A DNA stretch of 17,355 bases from positions 1-17,355 of the forward strand of contig CAZAPD010000051.1 in the NCBI GenBank assembly GCA_964487115.1. The letters are read 5' to 3'. The notes below the pieces were generated by a model that searched no databases, was not told the DNA's origin, and saw only the letters and a program-made list of their open reading frames with translations. Both the position numbers and the translations under genes were made by a program. The stretch is from an uncultured Thermococci archaeon. GTDB taxonomy: Archaea; Methanobacteriota_B; Thermococci; Thermococcales; Thermococcaceae. The stretch's first letter is position 1. Every line of letters begins with the position of its first letter. This document shows positions 5,974 through 15,840 of the stretch, piece by piece.

Positions 5974-7320
5974 ATGAAAGTAAGCCTCTTTTACCATAGA
6001 GGAACAGTTGTAATAAAGGGTAACGTGCATGTGCCCTTTGCGAAGTGGGACGAGAGGAGTAAAACCTACAGGGCGCTGGCCTACAAATACCGGGATATTG
6101 TGGAGTTCCTGAGACAGGAGGGAATTGATTTTGAAGATCACGTATTTGATAATGCAATTCCATCTCCCTTTTATGATGTGGAATTCGATTTTGAGCTGAG
6201 GGACTATCAAAAGGAAGCCGTGGAGAAGTTTTTAAGGTTTGGGAGAGGTGTCGTTGTTCTGCCGACTGGAGCTGGAAAAACGATAGTTGCCATGGAGATA
6301 ATAAGGCAGCTTTCAGTTTCAACCCTCATAGTGGTTCCGACTCTGGCTCTGCTCGAACAGTGGAAGGAGAGGCTTTCAATTTTTGGTGATGCAGGAGAGT
6401 TCTCCGGGAAGAAGAAGGAGCTCAGGCCTATAACCGTCACAACTTATGATTCGGCATACATAAACGCCGAACTCTTGGGAGACAAGTTCTTTCTCTTGGT
6501 TTTCGATGAATGCCACCACCTACCAAGCGAGGCCTACAGGAATATAGCTCAGATGAGTGCCGCTCCCTATCGTCTCGGTCTAACAGCTTCTCCTGAGAGA
6601 GCCGATGAGCTGCATGAACTCCTGCCAGAGCTGATTGGCGGGATTATCTACGAGAAAAATCCAGAGGAGCTCGTAGGGAAGTATCTGGCACCTTATGAAG
6701 TGATAAGGATTCACATTCCTTTGAGCAGGGAAGAGAAAGAACTCTACAAAAAGCATTACGAGAAGTTTAAGAACTATGTCAAAAGCAGGAACATTAAGTT
6801 CAGAAGCATTGGAGATTTTCAGAGAATAGTTGTGAGAACTGGAAGTGATGAAGAGGCATTCAGGGCTTTAAGAGCTTTGGAGCAGGCAAGGAGAATAGCG
6901 TTTAATTCAAAAAAGAAAGTTGAGAAGCTCAGGAAAATTCTTGAAAAGCACAGGGGAGAGAAGATAATTATATTTACAAGACACAATGACCTCGTCTATT
7001 CCATATCCAAAAAATTTCTGATTCCTGCAATAACACACAAAACCGACAAAGCTGAGAGGATGGAGATATTGAAAAAATTCAGAGAGGGCAGATACATGGC
7101 AATAGTCAGCAGTCAGGTTCTTGATGAGGGTATAGACGTTCCTGATGCCAGCGTTGGTGTTATAATAAGTGGCACAGGTTCATCAAGAGAGTTCATTCAA
7201 AGGCTTGGCAGGATTTTAAGGCCTGCTCCCGGTAAGGAGAAGGCAGTCTTATATGAGCTTGTTTCGGCAGGAACGAGTGAAGTTAGAGTCGCAAGGAGAA
7301 GATCCGGTCATCTCCATTAG
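5974..7320 (+). CDS. xpb: XPB/Rad25-like SF2 DNA helicase
   Basis: [43 protein letters not shown]-terminal [15 protein letters not shown] damage-recognition-like segment. Confidence 0.9.
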
Positions 7321-7391
7321 CTGTCATTAACAGAAAAATACAACTCATGTAAGTAGAAATATTTTTAACTTTAAACGTCCCATATGAGGAC

Positions 7392-8708
7392 ATGAAACGA
7401 AGGACTGGTATTATACTAACTGTAATCCTCATGCTTTTCCTTTCGCTTACGACATCCCATATGTATTCTGAATTACACCCTTTTAGCATTCCTTCCGAAT
7501 ACATAACCCCTCTGGCGTTTTCAAATGAAACTCCCAATCTTTTCTATGTCAGGTACTTCACGAACGCTTCAAAAGTTATTGTTCTCTTTGAGAACAAAGA
7601 AAATGCTGAAAAATTTGCCTCGTTTATACAGAACAGTTCGGTTGTGATAACTTCCGATGGCATGCATGCGGATGTTCTCATGAAGCGAGAAGCTCTCGCG
7701 AAAATACTGGAGCTCGCTGATTACGCCGATGAAACTAAGCTTTCTATCGATGGCTACTGGAATCCCAGCAGGATTGAGGAGGAGTATGGGGATTTGAACT
7801 TTCTTCTGACAAACTACAGCTTTCCAGAGCCGATTAAAGATTATCTGCTGGACAGATTTAGGGAGCGGGCGGAGGACATAGACAGAATAGAGCGGGCAAA
7901 AAATTTCATGCTCACTCATAAAGGGCTTGAATTTTATGAAATCGAGCTCATAGAACCTTCGCACAGCATGGAATATCCGGATTTATCCTCAGACTTGACG
8001 GTTATCCTGCTCGCTGAAATCGCTTTGGTAATCCTTGCGGTTCTTGAGCGGGAAAGGAAGATAAGGGCGATATTCCTGATATCTTTTCTCCTCCTGACAG
8101 TTCCAACATATCAACTTCTCATGTATGAGAGGGAACTGAATAATCATGAACAGATTCTCAGCCATATAACAAGAACACCTGAAAAACACTTTAACTGGAC
8201 GTCTTATAAAAGCCTGAATGGGAGTATTGGAATCTCATGCTATGTTAGCAACATTCACGAAATAGAAAACCTGTTAGCGGCAGTTAATTCCTCGGGGATT
8301 GTTGGAATCGAACACTCGCTAAGGGGCACGTGGCTTCATATGATGTTTGTGGATGGAAATCCCCGAAGGTTTCTGCTCTTCAAGGAATGCGACATAACGA
8401 TGTACGGCTACTCCTGCACCAAAGAACCTACGGAAGAGGAACTTGAAGTTATTAACAGAACAAAGGAACTCCTGAAAGAGATTCCAGAGGATAAGAAGTA
8501 TCTCGTTGAAGATGCTCTCTCGAGTTATAACACCACTGTTAGTTCCTGCAATGAATTGTTTAATCCGGAAAGCATTCCTCCGGGAAAATACATGGTTAGC
8601 CTCACTATAACCCCTTCGGGAATTGGAGTACCCGATTTACAGCTTGTGATTCAGATGATGGCATCGGTAATAGTTATTCTGTTTTTGGTGCTTTTCTTTG
8701 TAAGGTGA
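7392..8708 (+). CDS. Hypothetical membrane protein with apparent two-repeat architecture
   Basis: 438-aa ORF with N-terminal hydrophobic helix, central pair of hydrophobic helices and C-terminal helix; no family motif recognised. Confidence 0.75.
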   Translation: MKRRTGIILTVILMLFLSLTTSHMYSELHPFSIPSEYITPLAFSNETPNLFYVRYFTNASKVIVLFENKENAEKFASFIQNSSVVITSDGMHADVLMKREALAKILELADYADETKLSIDGYWNPSRIEEEYGDLNFLLTNYSFPEPIKDYLLDRFRERAEDIDRIERAKNFMLTHKGLEFYEIELIEPSHSMEYPDLSSDLTVILLAEIALVILAVLERERKIRAIFLISFLLLTVPTYQLLMYERELNNHEQILSHITRTPEKHFNWTSYKSLNGSIGISCYVSNIHEIENLLAAVNSSGIVGIEHSLRGTWLHMMFVDGNPRRFLLFKECDITMYGYSCTKEPTEEELEVINRTKELLKEIPEDKKYLVEDALSSYNTTVSSCNELFNPESIPPGKYMVSLTITPSGIGVPDLQLVIQMMASVIVILFLVLFFVR

Positions 8709-9231
8709 AGAGCAGTCTTTCCGCTTTTTCCAGCTCTTCGGGAGTATTCACATTCAAAGCCAAGAGTGGATTGCTCAGCTCAAAAAACTCTTCTCCCCCG
8801 TGGGCAACGGCATTGAGGCCGATTATGGCATGGCCATTGTAAACGACGGGCTTTAAATCCCTGGGTACAATGCTTAGGGGTAGAACCCCGGTGAGGCTGG
8901 TTTTTCCGTCAAAGGCTTTCTTTATCATCCAAATGTCACTTGCCTTGACGAATGGAATATCCGAAGCAGAGCTTATGAATGGCCCAAATTCTCTCAAAAG
9001 CCACAGGACATCTGCGACATACCCCTTTCCGGGGGTTTCTATAAAGGGTATCCCTTCGCGGAGGCAGAGTTCTTTCGTTTTTGGCGTGTTTTTCGAGAGG
9101 GCAACAAAGGTTTCATCGATCTTTGAGGCTTGATCATATACCCACATAAGCATCTCTTTACCAGCTATTCTTAGGATGGGCTTCTCTTTACCCATGCGTG
9201 CTGATTTTCCGCCTGCTAAGATGATTATCAT
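8674..9231 (-). CDS. cobY: Adenosylcobinamide-phosphate guanylyltransferase CobY (NTP_transf_3)
   Basis: [41 protein letters not shown] 9231 overlaps the cobS stop (ATGA), RBS GGTGG. Confidence 0.9.
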
Positions 9232-9923
9232 AGATACCACCAAATGAAAGTCAAAGTCAAAAGCGTCCCTGCCCTTGTTATCTCAGCCGTTGCTCCAATG
9301 CAGTCGCCGTTAATCCCTCCAAAATTATCCAGGCTGAGCTTTATGGTATGAGCTCCAGTTAAGAGCCCCAAAACCGAGAAGATGCTTTTTGGACTGTAAA
9401 CTACAGCGGGAAGGAGGAGAGCCAAATAGAGCACACTCCCGGCGAGGAGTTGTTTTTTATTCATTGCCTCCATGAAGTAAGAGCCGAGGCCTTCTCCAAG
9501 GGGCTTCTTCGTGGTCAGAGCGAGGAGCATTGCATACTTGGAATTGAGCTCCGCTAAGAAGATGGCGTAGAATGGGAGGAGCTGGAGAGAATAGATCTGG
9601 AGAAAAATAACCATCACAACGGCAAAGACTCCTGCTATGCCGGTATTTAAGTCTTTCATTGCTTTGATTTTCCTTTTCCTGTCTCCTTTGATCATGATGC
9701 CATCAGCCCAATCGGCCAAACCATCGAGATGCAGCAGTCCAATGACAAGATACAGGAGCAGGATAGCAAGCACATTTTTTAGAGGAACGTTAAGATATAG
9801 AATTAAGGAGGGTAAAGCTGATGTTATGGGTGCTAACAGGGGAAATGTCCACACTTCGTGTCGTGCATTTTCAAAATTTCCTTTGAGCGGAATCCTCGTC
9901 ATGAATGGGATGAGGTTCTTCAT
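9228..9923 (-). CDS. cobS: Cobalamin-5'-phosphate synthase CobS
   Basis: [39 protein letters not shown]; multiple TM helices; ATG 9923 after GAGGTGA. Confidence 0.95.
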
Positions 9924-9933
9924 ATTTTCACCT

Positions 9934-9948
9934 CGGCTAATTAATCCA
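9934..9948. promoter_or_regulatory. Candidate operator site 3 (CGGCTAATTAATCCA) upstream of cobS-cobY
   Basis: 12/15 identical to site 2; abuts the cobS RBS. Confidence 0.6.
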
Positions 9949-10275
9949 ATATTAAGCAAGGCTTAAAAGCTCTCCGCTTCATTTTAGGATACTGTCAGGA
10001 TAAGCTGTGTGGGGTGTTAGGTCTAAGTTTCTAATACTACCCAGAAAGAGCTGGAACTATAAATCATAAGTATAATTAAGAGGCATCAGTTACCGTCAAA
10101 CATACTGAAACTGTACAACATTCCGAGAAACACTTCGAAAATTCGCGAGATAATAACTTTACCAGCTTTCTGTTTTGGTTCTCTGCCTGATGATATTGTC
10201 GAATGGGTTCAGGAAGTAATGCCACAGTTATCCTAATAGTGCCAATTACAGTTTGCAATACAAATTACAGGAATC

Positions 10276-10289
10276 AAAAAATTTATAAA
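10276..10289 (+). promoter_or_regulatory. BRE/TATA promoter of the peptide-radical SAM operon
   Basis: A-run followed by TTTATAAA (10282-10289), 22 nt before GTG 10312. Confidence 0.65.
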
Positions 10290-10311
10290 TCTTAAAAAAA
10301 TAATACTAACG

Positions 10312-10467
10312 GTGATTGAAATAATCGACGCTAAACAAGAGTTAGATGTTTTAGAATTGATCAGGAGCATAGTTGAGACTAAACCAGAATTCAATTACTC
10401 CCAAATTCCTCCATTATGCGCTGGTAGACAGTGCAACTCAAGAGCGTGGCAAATCTATGGATTTTGA
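10312..10467 (+). CDS. Putative RiPP precursor peptide, 51 aa: MIEIIDAKQELDVLELIRSIVETKPEFNYSQIPPLCAGRQCNSRAWQIYGF
   Basis: Manually translated GTG...TGA ORF below the ORF-track size range; follows a TATA box, is followed by a T-tract, and ends 46 nt before an RRE-containing radical SAM gene; acidic/hydrophobic leader-like half and Cys/aromatic C-terminal half. Confidence 0.75.
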   Translation: MIEIIDAKQELDVLELIRSIVETKPEFNYSQIPPLCAGRQCNSRAWQIYGF

Positions 10468-10468
10468 C

Positions 10469-10478
10469 TTTTATTTTT
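10469..10478 (+). terminator. Oligo-T tract after the peptide gene (possible leaky terminator)
   Basis: TTTTATTTTT just after the TGA. Confidence 0.45.
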
Positions 10479-10513
10479 AGCTACTCTTGTATGAGTCTGG
10501 TGAGGTAGTAAAA

Positions 10514-11926
10514 ATGGAAGTTAGAAATATGTATCTTAAACTTCAGGAGCTTGTCGACTCAAGAGTTTTTTACTGGAGAAAAGAGGATGGGCATGGGTTG
10601 ATACTTCACAAGATTAGTAGCAAAAAGGATACAAAAGGTTTTGAAGTCTACACAGATCTCGGAACTATTGCACTGCTTGAACTTGCTAAGTTGCACATAC
10701 CTTATGAACAAATTGTTTCAATGATACAAAATAATTTTGGAATGAGTCGAGAAAATGTCGAAGCCATACTCTATGAACGCCTGAGCAAATTGCTGGGATT
10801 TACTACAGAATTCCTTTCTCCATACCCTCAAGCACACCCGTACTCCTACTCTGCTCCTCATTTAGCAGCAGTAGAAATTACAACCCACTGTAATTTGACC
10901 TGCAATTACTGTTATGCCCACTCTGGACCTCATGTAAATCTGTACATGAGTTTTAATCAGGTTTTACATGTATTTAATGAACTTGAAACTCTTGGAATCC
11001 CAATTTTATGGATTACTGGGGGAGAACCCCTTCTCCATCCGGAGATTGACAGAATATTAAAAGAAGCTCAAGAGCGAGGATTTTATGTAATACTTGCCAC
11101 TAATGGAATTCCTCTGTATAAAAACCAAAAATTGTTATCTATTGTTAAGAATTATGTTGACGAAATACAGATTGCACTAGATGGAGCAAAGCGAGAAACC
11201 CATGAATTTTATCGTGGATATGGGACTTATGATAAAGTAATCTGGACAATCAGAAATCTTACTAATGATAAAAACCAGCATGGGACAATTATTGTTGTTG
11301 GCACAACTATTGGTAAAAGAAACCTACATGAATTACCTGATATCATTAAACTCGTTGATTCATTGGGAGCAGATAGCTGGGTTTATGGAGCATTAATTCC
11401 TATTGGTAGGGGAAAGTTTATAAAATCGGAAGGGCTCTCACCTAACGAACTAGTGGAGGCATACCATTTAATAATTCAAGGATCAAAACAGGCAAATAGT
11501 GTAACTGTGTTGAAGTCTTTGGCAGGCGTGACTCCTCTTGATCCACCCCCCACAAAACCAACTGCCAGATGCGGTGCAGTTAATTTTCAAATACAAATAC
11601 ATACCAATGGAGATGTGTACCCCTGCGTCTTTCTTAGGGAAGAAAGGTTTAAATTGGGCAATATTTTTCAAAACTCTTTAAAGGAGATACTGGCATCCCC
11701 TCTTGCAGAATACTTCAGAATTGGCATTGATAATCCTGAAGGGGATAAATTCAATCTGGTTGATCCTGAATGCAGGCAATGCATTCTTTATAAGGAAGGA
11801 TACTGTAACACGTTCTGCAAAGCCATACCTCGGGAACTGTACTGCACAAGAGATATACCTGGTTCACCATTAAACCAATTATATACCTCCAAGTTGAGGG
11901 AGGACAATGGAGGCAATAGCAGTTGA
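10514..11926 (+). CDS. Radical SAM/SPASM peptide maturase with N-terminal PqqD-like RiPP recognition element
   Basis: CNLTCNYC (CxxxCxxC), TGGEPLL, TNG; SPASM Cx12Gx4C...Cx2Cx7Cx3Cx8C; about 95-aa N-terminal strand-then-helix domain (RKEDGHGLIL...TDLGTIALLEL...YEQIVSMIQNNFGMSRENVEAILYERLSKL); ATG 10514 after GGTGAGGT. Confidence 0.9.
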   Translation: MEVRNMYLKLQELVDSRVFYWRKEDGHGLILHKISSKKDTKGFEVYTDLGTIALLELAKLHIPYEQIVSMIQNNFGMSRENVEAILYERLSKLLGFTTEFLSPYPQAHPYSYSAPHLAAVEITTHCNLTCNYCYAHSGPHVNLYMSFNQVLHVFNELETLGIPILWITGGEPLLHPEIDRILKEAQERGFYVILATNGIPLYKNQKLLSIVKNYVDEIQIALDGAKRETHEFYRGYGTYDKVIWTIRNLTNDKNQHGTIIVVGTTIGKRNLHELPDIIKLVDSLGADSWVYGALIPIGRGKFIKSEGLSPNELVEAYHLIIQGSKQANSVTVLKSLAGVTPLDPPPTKPTARCGAVNFQIQIHTNGDVYPCVFLREERFKLGNIFQNSLKEILASPLAEYFRIGIDNPEGDKFNLVDPECRQCILYKEGYCNTFCKAIPRELYCTRDIPGSPLNQLYTSKLREDNGGNSS

Positions 11927-12788
11927 AGGTCTCACCAAGAACTATGGAAAAATCAAAGCTCTTGATTCTTTAACTTTTTCAGTTCAGGAAGGGAGTATTC
12001 TTGGGATTATTGGACCGAATGGTGCAGGAAAAACGACTTTAGTACGAATTCTCAGTTGCCTGCTTAAACCGGATGGCGGCAGGGTATTTCTATACGGTCG
12101 TGAAATTACTTCCTGCAAAAGTGACATCAAAAACCTCTTTGCACTCCTACCTCAAGAGGCAAAGGCTCATTTTTATACCCTCACACCCTTCGAGTACATT
12201 TACCATTACCTCAGGATGAGAGGGTTTTCAAAAGAAGAGGCTAAGGCTCGAGCTGAACAGGCTATAGAAGAGTTTAACATTGACTATGCCAATAGGATAA
12301 TGTCAACGCTTTCAGGTGGCATGGTTAGGAAAACTTTGCTTGCTATGATTTTATCGGCTGATGTTAATATTTATTATCTTGATGAACCTACAGTGGGACT
12401 TGATGTTGAAAATCGCCTGAAATTATGGGAAATACTGAGAGAAAAAAGCAGAAACTCCACCATAGTGATAACAAGCCACTACTTAAATGAAATTTCCACT
12501 GTATGCGACGAGGTACTTCTCCTTAAAAAAGGAAGAGCAGTTGCCTTTGGTGAACCAGAAAAAATTGGGCGGCAATATCTCTCCCAGTTCTATTCAAAAA
12601 TAGTTGTCTTTGGAGAGTTTATTAAGGAGGAGTACATAACAAAAAGAGCAGGGAAAAACACTCTTGTTTATGTTAAATCAAAATTGGAAGAAAGAGATGT
12701 AGTTAGCAAATTAGAGGAGATTGGGCTTCCTTTTAAAAGAGAAGAACTAACTATAGAGGATATCTTTCTCGTGGGGGACTTAAGGTGA
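11907..12788 (+). CDS. ABC-2 type exporter ATP-binding subunit
   Basis: GPNGAGKTT, LSGGM, YYLDEPT, TSHY; RBS GGAGG; overlaps the radical SAM gene end by 20 nt. Confidence 0.93.
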   Translation: MEAIAVEGLTKNYGKIKALDSLTFSVQEGSILGIIGPNGAGKTTLVRILSCLLKPDGGRVFLYGREITSCKSDIKNLFALLPQEAKAHFYTLTPFEYIYHYLRMRGFSKEEAKARAEQAIEEFNIDYANRIMSTLSGGMVRKTLLAMILSADVNIYYLDEPTVGLDVENRLKLWEILREKSRNSTIVITSHYLNEISTVCDEVLLLKKGRAVAFGEPEKIGRQYLSQFYSKIVVFGEFIKEEYITKRAGKNTLVYVKSKLEERDVVSKLEEIGLPFKREELTIEDIFLVGDLR

Positions 12789-13483
12789 GCATTTGGGCAA
12801 TAATTGAGTATCATAAAAATGCACTAATGAAGAGCAAAAGCTCAATCTTAAGTTTTGCTATACAACCAATCTCATTTATTTTTATTGTTTATGTGACTAG
12901 TGGGGGTAGATTTCTTTCATCAGCTGTTGCGGGAGCTGTTGTTAGCTTCATTGTCGGGGTTGGGATGGCAGACCTTCCAATAGAATTAGTGGGAATGAAA
13001 GTTCGTTCAAAATTTTATGATATAATAATGACTCTACCCGGAAATTCAGCAGAGAAGATGCTCGGAATATCGATAGGTATGAGCTTACCAGCTATGCCAT
13101 ATTTGATAGTACTCATCCTCATTCTCCTTGCAAAGCTTGGATTTTCTCACATAAAATATGTAATGTTTGGTGTAATTTCTTTGTGGATATGGAGCACAAC
13201 TCTTGGAATGTATATGGGTGTCAAAATTAGAGAACCACTTACGGTTATGAGGCTGTCAACGGTTTTAACAACCCTGCTAACAGTTTTTCTTCCGGTTTAT
13301 TACCCCCTAACTATCGTACCCGAGAAATTGCACTATGTTCTCCTGTTGGTGCCTACCGTCAGTGCATCACACCTAATGGCATACAGGCATCCACAATATG
13401 CGGGTTTGTCTATCACATCATTGGTGTTTTGGGTGATTCTATGCTTAATGTTGATTCTTGTTATTGAATTTAGGGAAGATTAG
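12785..13483 (+). CDS. ABC-2 type exporter permease
   Basis: About six hydrophobic segments, PVYYPL..VP motif; GTGA overlap with the ATPase gene. Confidence 0.88.
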   Translation: MSIWAIIEYHKNALMKSKSSILSFAIQPISFIFIVYVTSGGRFLSSAVAGAVVSFIVGVGMADLPIELVGMKVRSKFYDIIMTLPGNSAEKMLGISIGMSLPAMPYLIVLILILLAKLGFSHIKYVMFGVISLWIWSTTLGMYMGVKIREPLTVMRLSTVLTTLLTVFLPVYYPLTIVPEKLHYVLLLVPTVSASHLMAYRHPQYAGLSITSLVFWVILCLMLILVIEFRED

Positions 13484-13540: not shown

Positions 13541-13705
13541 ATGAAAAAAGAACAATATAGGAGGTTGCTTGTGTTTGTTTTAATCCTGACTGTTCTGTAT
13601 ACTCTCGGATTAGTCGGCGTGCTTCCTTTTGCTGTTAGCTACTACATTACGATTTTCTTCATATTCCTGTTCCTCTTCCTCCGATGGCAGAAAAGGCTCA
13701 AATAA
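13541..13705 (+). CDS. Small two-helix membrane protein, 54 aa: MKKEQYRRLLVFVLILTVLYTLGLVGVLPFAVSYYITIFFIFLFLFLRWQKRLK
   Basis: Manually translated; TTTATAAA at 13512-13519 at leaderless spacing; basic termini flanking two hydrophobic stretches. Confidence 0.7.
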   Translation: MKKEQYRRLLVFVLILTVLYTLGLVGVLPFAVSYYITIFFIFLFLFLRWQKRLK

Positions 13706-15608: not shown

Positions 15609-15840
15609 ATTTTACCTGCTCATACTCCCCTCTTATCTTTTGAAGCTCTGCCTCATCAACATATGGTATTACCGCCCCGCAGCTGAGACAGAGCCATGGA
15701 TAGGCTTTAACAGTTCCGCTGAGTGCTCCTTTTAAACCGTGTTTCCATGGTGCTTTCCAGAAATACACCGCATATCCTGCTTGCGGGCTCTTCCCTTTTA
15801 TCATAGTTCCTCCACAGAAAGGACACTTTTTCGTCTCCAT
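15592..15840 (-). CDS. Small zinc-ribbon protein
   Basis: CPFCGG...CLSCG; RBS GGTGGTG. Confidence 0.8.
   Translation of the reverse strand: METKKCPFCGGTMIKGKSPQAGYAVYFWKAPWKHGLKGALSGTVKAYPWLCLSCGAVIPYVDEAELQKIRGEYEQVKLEGTI

Follow-up and report, generated by a model that had tools for sequence, protein, structure and literature searches.

A 17,355-nucleotide stretch of DNA from an uncultured Thermococci archaeon (the window) contains a four-gene cassette whose first gene likely encodes a RiPP-type substrate of the adjacent RRE-radical-SAM/SPASM enzyme, as judged from sequence and structure models. The precursor, the enzyme, and an ABC gene pair were shown to travel together as an acquired cassette, and we regard precursor and cassette as a candidate new archaeal natural product. 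By analogy with characterized enzymes, two cysteines of the precursor, C36 and C41, probably each form a small thioether ring made by the neighboring enzyme. The logic of the system appears familiar, and in sequence comparisons the precursor family matched no known family in the libraries searched.

Organization and mobility of the cassette

The four ORFs, in the order precursor, RRE-radical-SAM/SPASM enzyme, ABC ATPase, and permease, are all intact in the window (Table 1), and cobS (9228 to 9959, minus strand) is the left neighbor of the precursor gene. The ATPase gene was found in all six loci. The hydrophobic protein encoded after it had no match in Pfam or NCBIfam, and no protease gene was found within the cassette. 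The GC3 of the four cassette genes is 0.32 to 0.37, compared with 0.45 to 0.52 in 11 of the 12 other window genes measured; in the remaining one, at 15739, GC3 is 0.40.

Table 1. Features of the precursor cassette and their positions in the window
Feature	Position	Strand	Details
Decayed IS6-family remnant, left cassette edge	9987..10243	.	17/17 match to the IS end of L001
BRE-like A-run and TATA box (TTTATAAA), likely cassette promoter	10276..10289	+	From sequence
GGTGA ribosome-binding-like site	10311..10315	+	Five bases 5' of probable start 10321 (ATA)
Precursor peptide gene	10312..10467	+	Listed as 51 aa; 48 aa if read from the probable start 10321
Leader recognition region, residues 13-29	10348..10398	+	Predicted amphipathic helix, then short extended segment
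Linker S30-L35, invariant Pro-Pro-Leu	10399..10416	+	S30, P33, P34, and L35 invariant in 7/7
Core, residues 36-51	10417..10464	+	Putative boundary
RRE-radical SAM-SPASM maturase, 470 aa	10514..11926	+	CX3CX2C at 126/130/133; Pfam PF04055, PF13186
ABC transporter ATPase (DrrA-like)	11907..12788	+	PF00005; TIGR01188 198 bits, below the 312 cut-off
Hydrophobic protein, likely ABC-2-type permease (putative role)	12785..13483	+	Follows the ATPase in 6/6 loci

Genome G112 shows the empty site, with pgpA, a 54-aa ORF, and cobS side by side. No cassette lies beside cobS in G001, G064, and G073 (cobS was present in four of the five genomes searched), and G073 carries all four cassette genes at a different locus. 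An S9 peptidase gene upstream of the cassette in G073 was rejected as a member; its GC3 of 0.75, against 0.33 to 0.46 for the cassette, is host-like, so we treated it as a host gene. The 54-aa hydrophobic ORF (13541 to 13705 in the window) has no family match, lies on the strand opposite to pgpA in G112 and G119, and is absent from L002. It was ruled out as a cassette member because it is already present at the empty site.

Remains of insertion sequences mark the cassette edges. The window remnant includes a transposase C-terminal fragment (55% over 20 aa) and is single-copy in its own genome at the sensitivity used. Locus L002 (3524 to 3744) has an IS6-type remnant at the left edge, as does the window, and L001 has a near-complete IS6 element at the right edge (7046 to 7819), bearing terminal repeats of 16 bp and what looks like an 8-bp target duplication; an L001 ORF matches DDE_Tnp_IS240 just below cut-off. 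Elsewhere in the window, the cobalamin-salvage region includes a gene for a 438-aa probable membrane-anchored protein (7392 to 8708) with no Pfam or NCBIfam match.

Distribution and selection

An enzyme profile found orthologs in 6 of 97 family genomes. Across the phylum-level set of 133 Thermococci genomes, it returned the same six carriers (E ~1e-210) and three others near 1e-56, and a precursor profile strongly matched exactly those 6 of the 133 genomes (E <1e-28). The carriers are the window genome, the near-identical G101, G105, and G106, G119, and G073; because near-identical copies are included, the six amount to about four independent sequences. Weak matches of the precursor profile in G006 (E 0.006, two internal stops) and G108 (E 0.01) were not counted. 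At the loci of the enzyme matches with E ~1e-56 (L041 to L043), no similar precursor was found among the ORFs listed.

The initial annotation had made its reading depend on conservation of the frame. This was borne out by retention of the frame and stop in all six enzyme-bearing genomes and by synonymous-biased divergence. Between the window and G105, pS over residues 5 to 51 is 0.79 and pN is 0.13, and within residues 33 to 46 there are seven synonymous and no non-synonymous changes. The same comparison with G119 over residues 5 to 51 gives a pS of 0.28 and a pN of 0.04. For G073, whose precursor was located via its enzyme and not via peptide similarity, silent sites are saturated, and 12 of the 14 residues from 33 to 46 are retained. 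The precursor ORF is a genuine gene under purifying selection.

Outside the genome set, metagenome locus L024 is a near-copy of the window, and two precursor copies at NCBI are named from Thermococcus sp. 2319x1 and T. eurythermalis. The metagenome matches L025 to L028 were dropped as off-frame and inside unrelated genes, and a weak 42-residue match, L003, was set aside. A degenerate DNA pattern for the precursor matched 0 viral contigs, and tblastn against plasmids returned none at E 1e-30. A different candidate precursor was noticed in G131, which belongs to another order of the Thermococci: an ORF of 46 aa, rich in Cys, with a radical-SAM-like gene on either side (L046, 2637 to 2777).

Translation start and promoter

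Sequence comparison places the translation start probably at codon 4 (10321), three codons later than listed, which gives a peptide of 48 aa; the first three listed residues are probably untranslated. A GGTG[A/G] motif stands five bases ahead of an in-frame codon in 6/6 genomes, and following archaeal ribosome-site conventions we take 10311 to 10315 to be the ribosome site. The codon at this probable start is ATG in G119 and G073, GTG in G105 and G106, ATA in the window, and GCG in G101, so that it is non-canonical in two of the six genomes; the near-copy L024 has ATA too. The site corresponds to window codon 4 in all six genomes except G073. Among NCBI entries, P0013 begins at the codon-4 site and has 48 aa, and P0010 is the same as the window peptide from residue 5 on and has Met at that site.

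The element at 10276 to 10289 is presumably the promoter, given archaeal promoter layout. The AAAATTTATAA block is retained in L001 and L002 although the flanking DNA diverges. A T-rich run follows straight after the precursor stop (10468 to 10480), with T-rich sequence also in L001, L002, and G073; it may be a partial terminator that favors the precursor message over that of the enzyme.

The start codon bears on how much product this genome would make. There is a real, if minor, possibility that the family is active and the window copy is weakly translated or decaying, with little product in this genome. The ATA of the window and L024 and the GCG of G101, where P0010 has Met, would fit this, as would the IS6 remnant just upstream of the precursor and the several enzyme relatives recorded as partial or split (P0016/P0019, P0028, and P0029/P0053). 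However, the four ORFs of the window are intact, the split relatives may be assembly errors, and a leaderless message could begin with the in-frame GTG at position 10312, which lies 30 bases from the TATA box.

Leader, linker, and core of the precursor

We aligned seven precursor rows, representing five core variants, from three protein searches and cluster look-ups. Rows P0010, P0012, and P0179 came from exact-word-seeded searches, a bias toward a conserved core, and P0012 is five leader residues short. P0179 is tied to an enzyme only via a longest contig of 1295 bases that it has in common with P0028, a partial enzyme whose final residues appear frameshifted. Residues E10, S30, P33, P34, L35, C36, A37, G38, R39, C41, N42, S43, A45, and W46 are invariant in all seven rows; if the P0179 tail is an error, I48, G50, and F51 are invariant as well. 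As aligned, position 48 is Ile in six rows and Val in one, always beta-branched, and G50 and F51 are retained in 6/7. Position 40 is Gln in six rows and Glu in one, which gives C36-x3-Gln in 6/7 and C36-x3-Glu in 1/7, and C41-x3-Ala is present in every row. C36, C41, and W46 are equally spaced (i, i+5, i+10). The variable core positions are R44 (Arg in 4/7, Ser in 3/7), Y49 (Tyr in 3/7), Q47, and the tail.

The initial annotation had described an acidic, amphipathic leader, a Pro-Pro hinge, and an acid-free core with both cysteine and aromatic cross-link sites. Translation of the 51-residue ORF agrees with its placement of C36-x4-C41, R44, W46, Y49, and F51. The charge pattern is present in the window, where Asp and Glu are absent past residue 26, and does not extend to the family, in which P0179 has a net basic leader and P0178 a Glu in the core. 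The amphipathic character is real, with a hydrophobic moment of 0.68 to 0.80 for the leader helix in 5/5 homologs tested. A structure model of the precursor predicts a helix at residues 4 to 23, and its core has low confidence when modeled alone. The Pro-Pro pair exists at residues 33 and 34, five residues past the block of residues 1 to 27 rather than directly after it; since the co-fold described below puts the RRE-binding part at residues 13 to 29, Pro-Pro would act as a linker. Of the core residues expected to be constant, C36, C41, and W46 are so in 7/7 rows, and Tyr49 occurs in 3/7 only. Because R44 (Ser in 3/7 homologs) and Y49 vary, the R44-x-W46 and W46-x2-Y49 cyclophane links once suggested are unlikely. 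For the third link suggested, W46-x-I48, the alignment speaks neither for nor against.

The maturase

Both Pfam domains of the enzyme scored above cut-off (PF04055, 79.7 bits; PF13186, 48.2 bits). Its seven SPASM cysteines (353, 371, 420, 423, 431, 435, and 444) are retained in every family row that spans them, apart from a Phe at 423 in one partial row, and there is no conserved eighth. No NCBIfam model reached cut-off among the best 25 models for the enzyme; the top model was WgkB (114 of 650 bits), and the curated models AlbA (105/850), StsB (109/625), SkfB (67/300), and PapB (70/340) were also far below their cut-offs in bits. Sactisynthases are, according to the available text of PMC10288494, too divergent for exhaustive curated models.

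The structure model (pLDDT 85.4) has an N-terminal domain of three strands and three helices, which is by prediction a leader-binding RRE. Pfam did not find a PqqD domain in the enzyme, and the N-terminal 105 residues resemble PqqD clusters (0.87) at the level of a lead. VIA-align placed SkfB best (Z 28.8, rmsd 4.0, 345 aligned residues, model 17-438), followed by SuiB (25.4), anSME (25.4), and CteB (25.2), which are tied, and ChlB (Z 23.9); Foldseek placed SuiB first, then SkfB and CteB at similar E-values. The alignments to SkfB and SuiB cover the RRE domain. By sequence, the closest solved structures are SkfB (8.8e-30) and CteB (2.3e-28).

In a search of 1.84 billion representatives, six proteins scored at least 405 bits, and the scores then dropped to 272. 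Twelve full or near-full family members, one of them named from a Thermoprotei MAG, formed a single branch (SH-aLRT 99) when set against 23 outgroup rows chosen from the matches of that search, in a quick tree with midpoint root; the family stands on its own long branch. An enzyme named from a bacterium, Pendulispora albinea, belongs to the sister group in this tree (P0040, P0038, and P0177; support 97). In the G073 enzyme (L031; L044, 6200 to 7633), a short segment of the RRE helix region is duplicated in frame, which is not so in P0003 and P0017.

At the six catalytic-site positions of the scheme of PMC10288494, the window enzyme has Y,T,A,A,V,F. Compared with individual enzymes rather than with the group profiles of that study, it is identical at 2/6 positions to StsB (Y,T,I,S,K,L), at 2/6 to SkfB (Y,T,F,S,Q,L), and at 0/6 to CteB (F,F,T,S,H,Q). 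The profile thus leans away from CteB-type ranthisynthases, and placement among the sactisynthases is not established by it.

Co-folding of enzyme and precursor

Co-folding of the enzyme and precursor with three 4Fe-4S clusters and SAM gave a score of 0.71 (runs of 0.71, 0.85, and 0.66), and the best of three controls reached 0.01. In a ligand-free calibration, which applies only roughly to a run with its own alignments and ligands, 116 of 157 solved pairs and 2 of 215 mismatched pairs came up to the 0.71 mark. At least 67% of contacts are common to the runs, and the partner has a pLDDT of 67 or more. The pass may also reflect likeness to solved complexes of this kind (CteB, SuiB, and ChlB).

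The tightest contacts are between peptide residues 16 to 23 and enzyme residues 48 to 57, 71, and 86 on the RRE helices, and peptide residues 26 to 29 lie on enzyme residues 46 to 48 and 103 to 104 at RRE strand 3, the usual RRE arrangement. The whole interface spans peptide residues 13 to 51 and includes barrel strands and enzyme residues near C353, C371, and C435 (contacts at 352 to 354, 371 to 373, and 434 to 435). The model thus predicts that the leader docks on the RRE with the remainder in the barrel beside the auxiliary-cluster cysteines, and it does not specify which core residue is at the cluster. The proposed leader/core split gains support from this result, and the suggested co-fold of leader and RRE came out as anticipated, with residues 16 to 29 placed on the RRE.

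Proposed chemistry and alternatives

We propose that leader residues 13 to 29 dock on the N-terminal RRE and that the core is led into the barrel by the Pro-Pro linker. From what has been described for CteB, PapB, and CrpC, a core Cys thiol would bind the open iron of auxiliary cluster I, a 5'-deoxyadenosyl radical would abstract a hydrogen from a residue close by, and formation of an S-C bond would follow. Each thioether would change the mass by -2 Da, for -4 Da in total. The result would be two small unnested rings, each Cys linked two to four residues off. As first guesses for the acceptors, C36 might link to R39 or Q/E40 and C41 to S43-A45 or back to G38, with an S-C-alpha bond slightly favored over a non-alpha linkage. 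A host protease would then trim the leader, the ABC pair would export the product, and the invariant W46 may help to bind a target or a membrane, for competition or signaling.

The thioether option of the initial annotation is compatible with the seven-Cys SPASM domain of the enzyme, whose 3+4 pattern leaves an open iron and so suits a Cys thiol. Seven-Cys SPASM domains are not exclusive to thioether enzymes. In the accessible parts of PMC10177961, the three-Cys cluster of CteB, PapB, and Tte1186, in the 3+4 SPASM scheme, binds substrate Cys/Sec, and archaeal CrpC has the same seven-Cys 3+4 scheme in those of PMC13692751. The latter source also describes cross-linking of ACAGM and PCAGD motifs by CrpC. 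These resemble C-A-G at residues 36 to 38 of the precursor, a likeness of three residues that may be chance. By analogy, the system works like a radical-SAM thioether RiPP; no curated model reached cut-off, and assignment to the sactipeptide or ranthipeptide class is not established.

A different use of W46 is unlikely, although several observations speak for it. Here the Trp46 indole would be cross-linked to carbon (e.g., in a three-residue cyclophane with Ile/Val48) or to the Cys41 sulfur, and the remaining Cys would be in a disulfide or one ordinary thioether. W46 is as constant as the Cys pair and is followed at position 48 by a residue that is always beta-branched, the spacing of C36, C41, and W46 is even, the two Ala at cavity positions of the enzyme could leave the indole room, and the C-C cross-linker SuiB and the WgkB model were ranked first by Foldseek and among sub-threshold NCBIfam models, respectively. 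On the other hand, the variation of R44 and Y49 removes two of the three aromatic motifs first considered, the open iron of the SPASM pattern suits a Cys thiol, and triceptide partners in the available text of PMC11002830 are Arg, Asn, Asp, Ser, or Ala and do not include Ile/Val.

It is improbable that the peptide binds the enzyme for another reaction (e.g., epimerization or oxidative cleavage), or that the Cys pair binds metal, with a small ligand or cofactor as the product. Such chemistry would agree with the lack of any family model at cut-off among the best 25 NCBIfam models, with a catalytic-site profile sharing at most 2/6 positions with any enzyme compared, and with the isolation of the enzyme family on a long branch. 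The exporter in 6/6 loci nevertheless argues for a secreted peptide, and thioethers explain the two invariant Cys and the 3+4 pattern more simply.

Rather improbable as well is a specific bicyclic product, in which the Cys41 sulfur would join the Trp46 indole in a tryptathionine-type aryl thioether and Cys36 a second acceptor, to give a heat-stable peptide. The regular intervals between C36, C41, and W46 would suit it, as would P0179, in which conservation is lost past W46, and a narrow literature query found no radical-SAM Cys-Trp link. That the ORF is not a substrate at all, being a chance or regulatory upstream ORF, is highly improbable: the non-canonical start codons in 2/6 genomes would fit this, but divergence is synonymous-biased, with silent sites nearly saturated and the core retained, precursor and enzyme co-occur exactly, in G073 the two have moved together to a different locus, and the co-fold is far above its controls.

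Novelty and significance

The initial annotation recognized no precursor motif, and this held in every library and literature search made. Pfam and NCBIfam gave no family for the precursor, the best match among seven members being a chance one to ffh (E 0.1), and the clusters that the peptide matched in the ESM Atlas were all unnamed (best 0.90). The literature searched, which lay outside most subscription journals and bioRxiv supplements, held no paper on the cassette or core motif; a listing in a genome-mining table is possible.

Few archaeal radical-SAM peptide maturases have been tested, and the one characterized case found, CrpC, acts on a large repeat protein. The system described here is a compact one of four genes, in which a conserved stretch of 14 residues (33 to 46) makes the chemistry experimentally testable. 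It could yield a thermostable peptide-stapling enzyme and could inform the prediction of radical-SAM chemistry from an unusual active-site profile. The product is a candidate antagonism or signaling molecule among hyperthermophile communities.

Comparison with known systems

The cassette is like the sactipeptide systems (SkfB/sporulation killing factor, AlbA/subtilosin A, StsB, and GggB/streptosactin) in having an RRE-rSAM-SPASM enzyme beside a short Cys-bearing precursor and an ABC exporter. Both by sequence and in VIA-align, SkfB matches best, at ~18 to 20% identity, and the catalytic-site positions 1 and 2 (Tyr, Thr) are those of StsB and SkfB, whereas positions 3 to 6 differ from both. In the available text of PMC8172795, streptosactin is a precedent for two unnested Cys-x2 rings. 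Unlike in these systems, the two Cys are five apart near the C terminus, there is no protease gene, and the models are far below cut-off; the precursor motif does not occur among the 3,421 precursors compiled in PMC10288494.

With the ranthipeptide systems (CteB/SCIFF, PapB/freyrasin, and QhpD), the enzyme shares, at the sequence level, a seven-Cys 3+4 SPASM domain with 17 residues between the first two Cys. The C36-x3-Q/E40 motif resembles the CX3D/E of PapB but has Gln at position 40 in 6/7 rows, and the second Cys has Ala at +4. The CteB catalytic residues (0/6) and the PapB model (70/340) further set the enzyme apart.

The aromatic cross-linkers (SuiB/StrB, WgkB, WprB, and the triceptide 3-CyFEs) have the same fold class and a conserved Trp in the core. 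In contrast to them, the window core has no conserved Lys, Arg, Asn, Asp, or Ser at W+2, and R44 is not conserved; their cores, in the descriptions available, do not depend on a Cys pair, whereas the window core has one.

Two archaeal systems are the nearest in setting. CrpA/CrpC of Methanococcus voltae, as far as set out in the accessible portion of PMC13692751, likewise has an archaeal RRE-rSAM-SPASM enzyme, seven SPASM Cys, and C-A-G-x motifs, with thioether formation described for CrpC. Unlike CrpA, which is a 29 kDa repeat protein in that account, the window precursor has a single short core, a conserved Trp, and a dedicated exporter, and the CrpC family TIGR04463 was not among the best 25 NCBIfam models for the window enzyme. 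The subtilosin-like clusters of T. celer and T. nautili (sboA/albA/albC), in the portion available of bioRxiv 10.64898/2026.07.27.741052, are minimal cassettes of precursor, rSAM, and ABC genes with no protease, patchy in Thermococcales and proposed to be horizontally acquired. The window cassette is like them in this minimal, protease-free layout; theirs, by the same account, keep the three Cys of subtilosin, whereas the window precursor has two and its enzyme is far below the AlbA cut-off.
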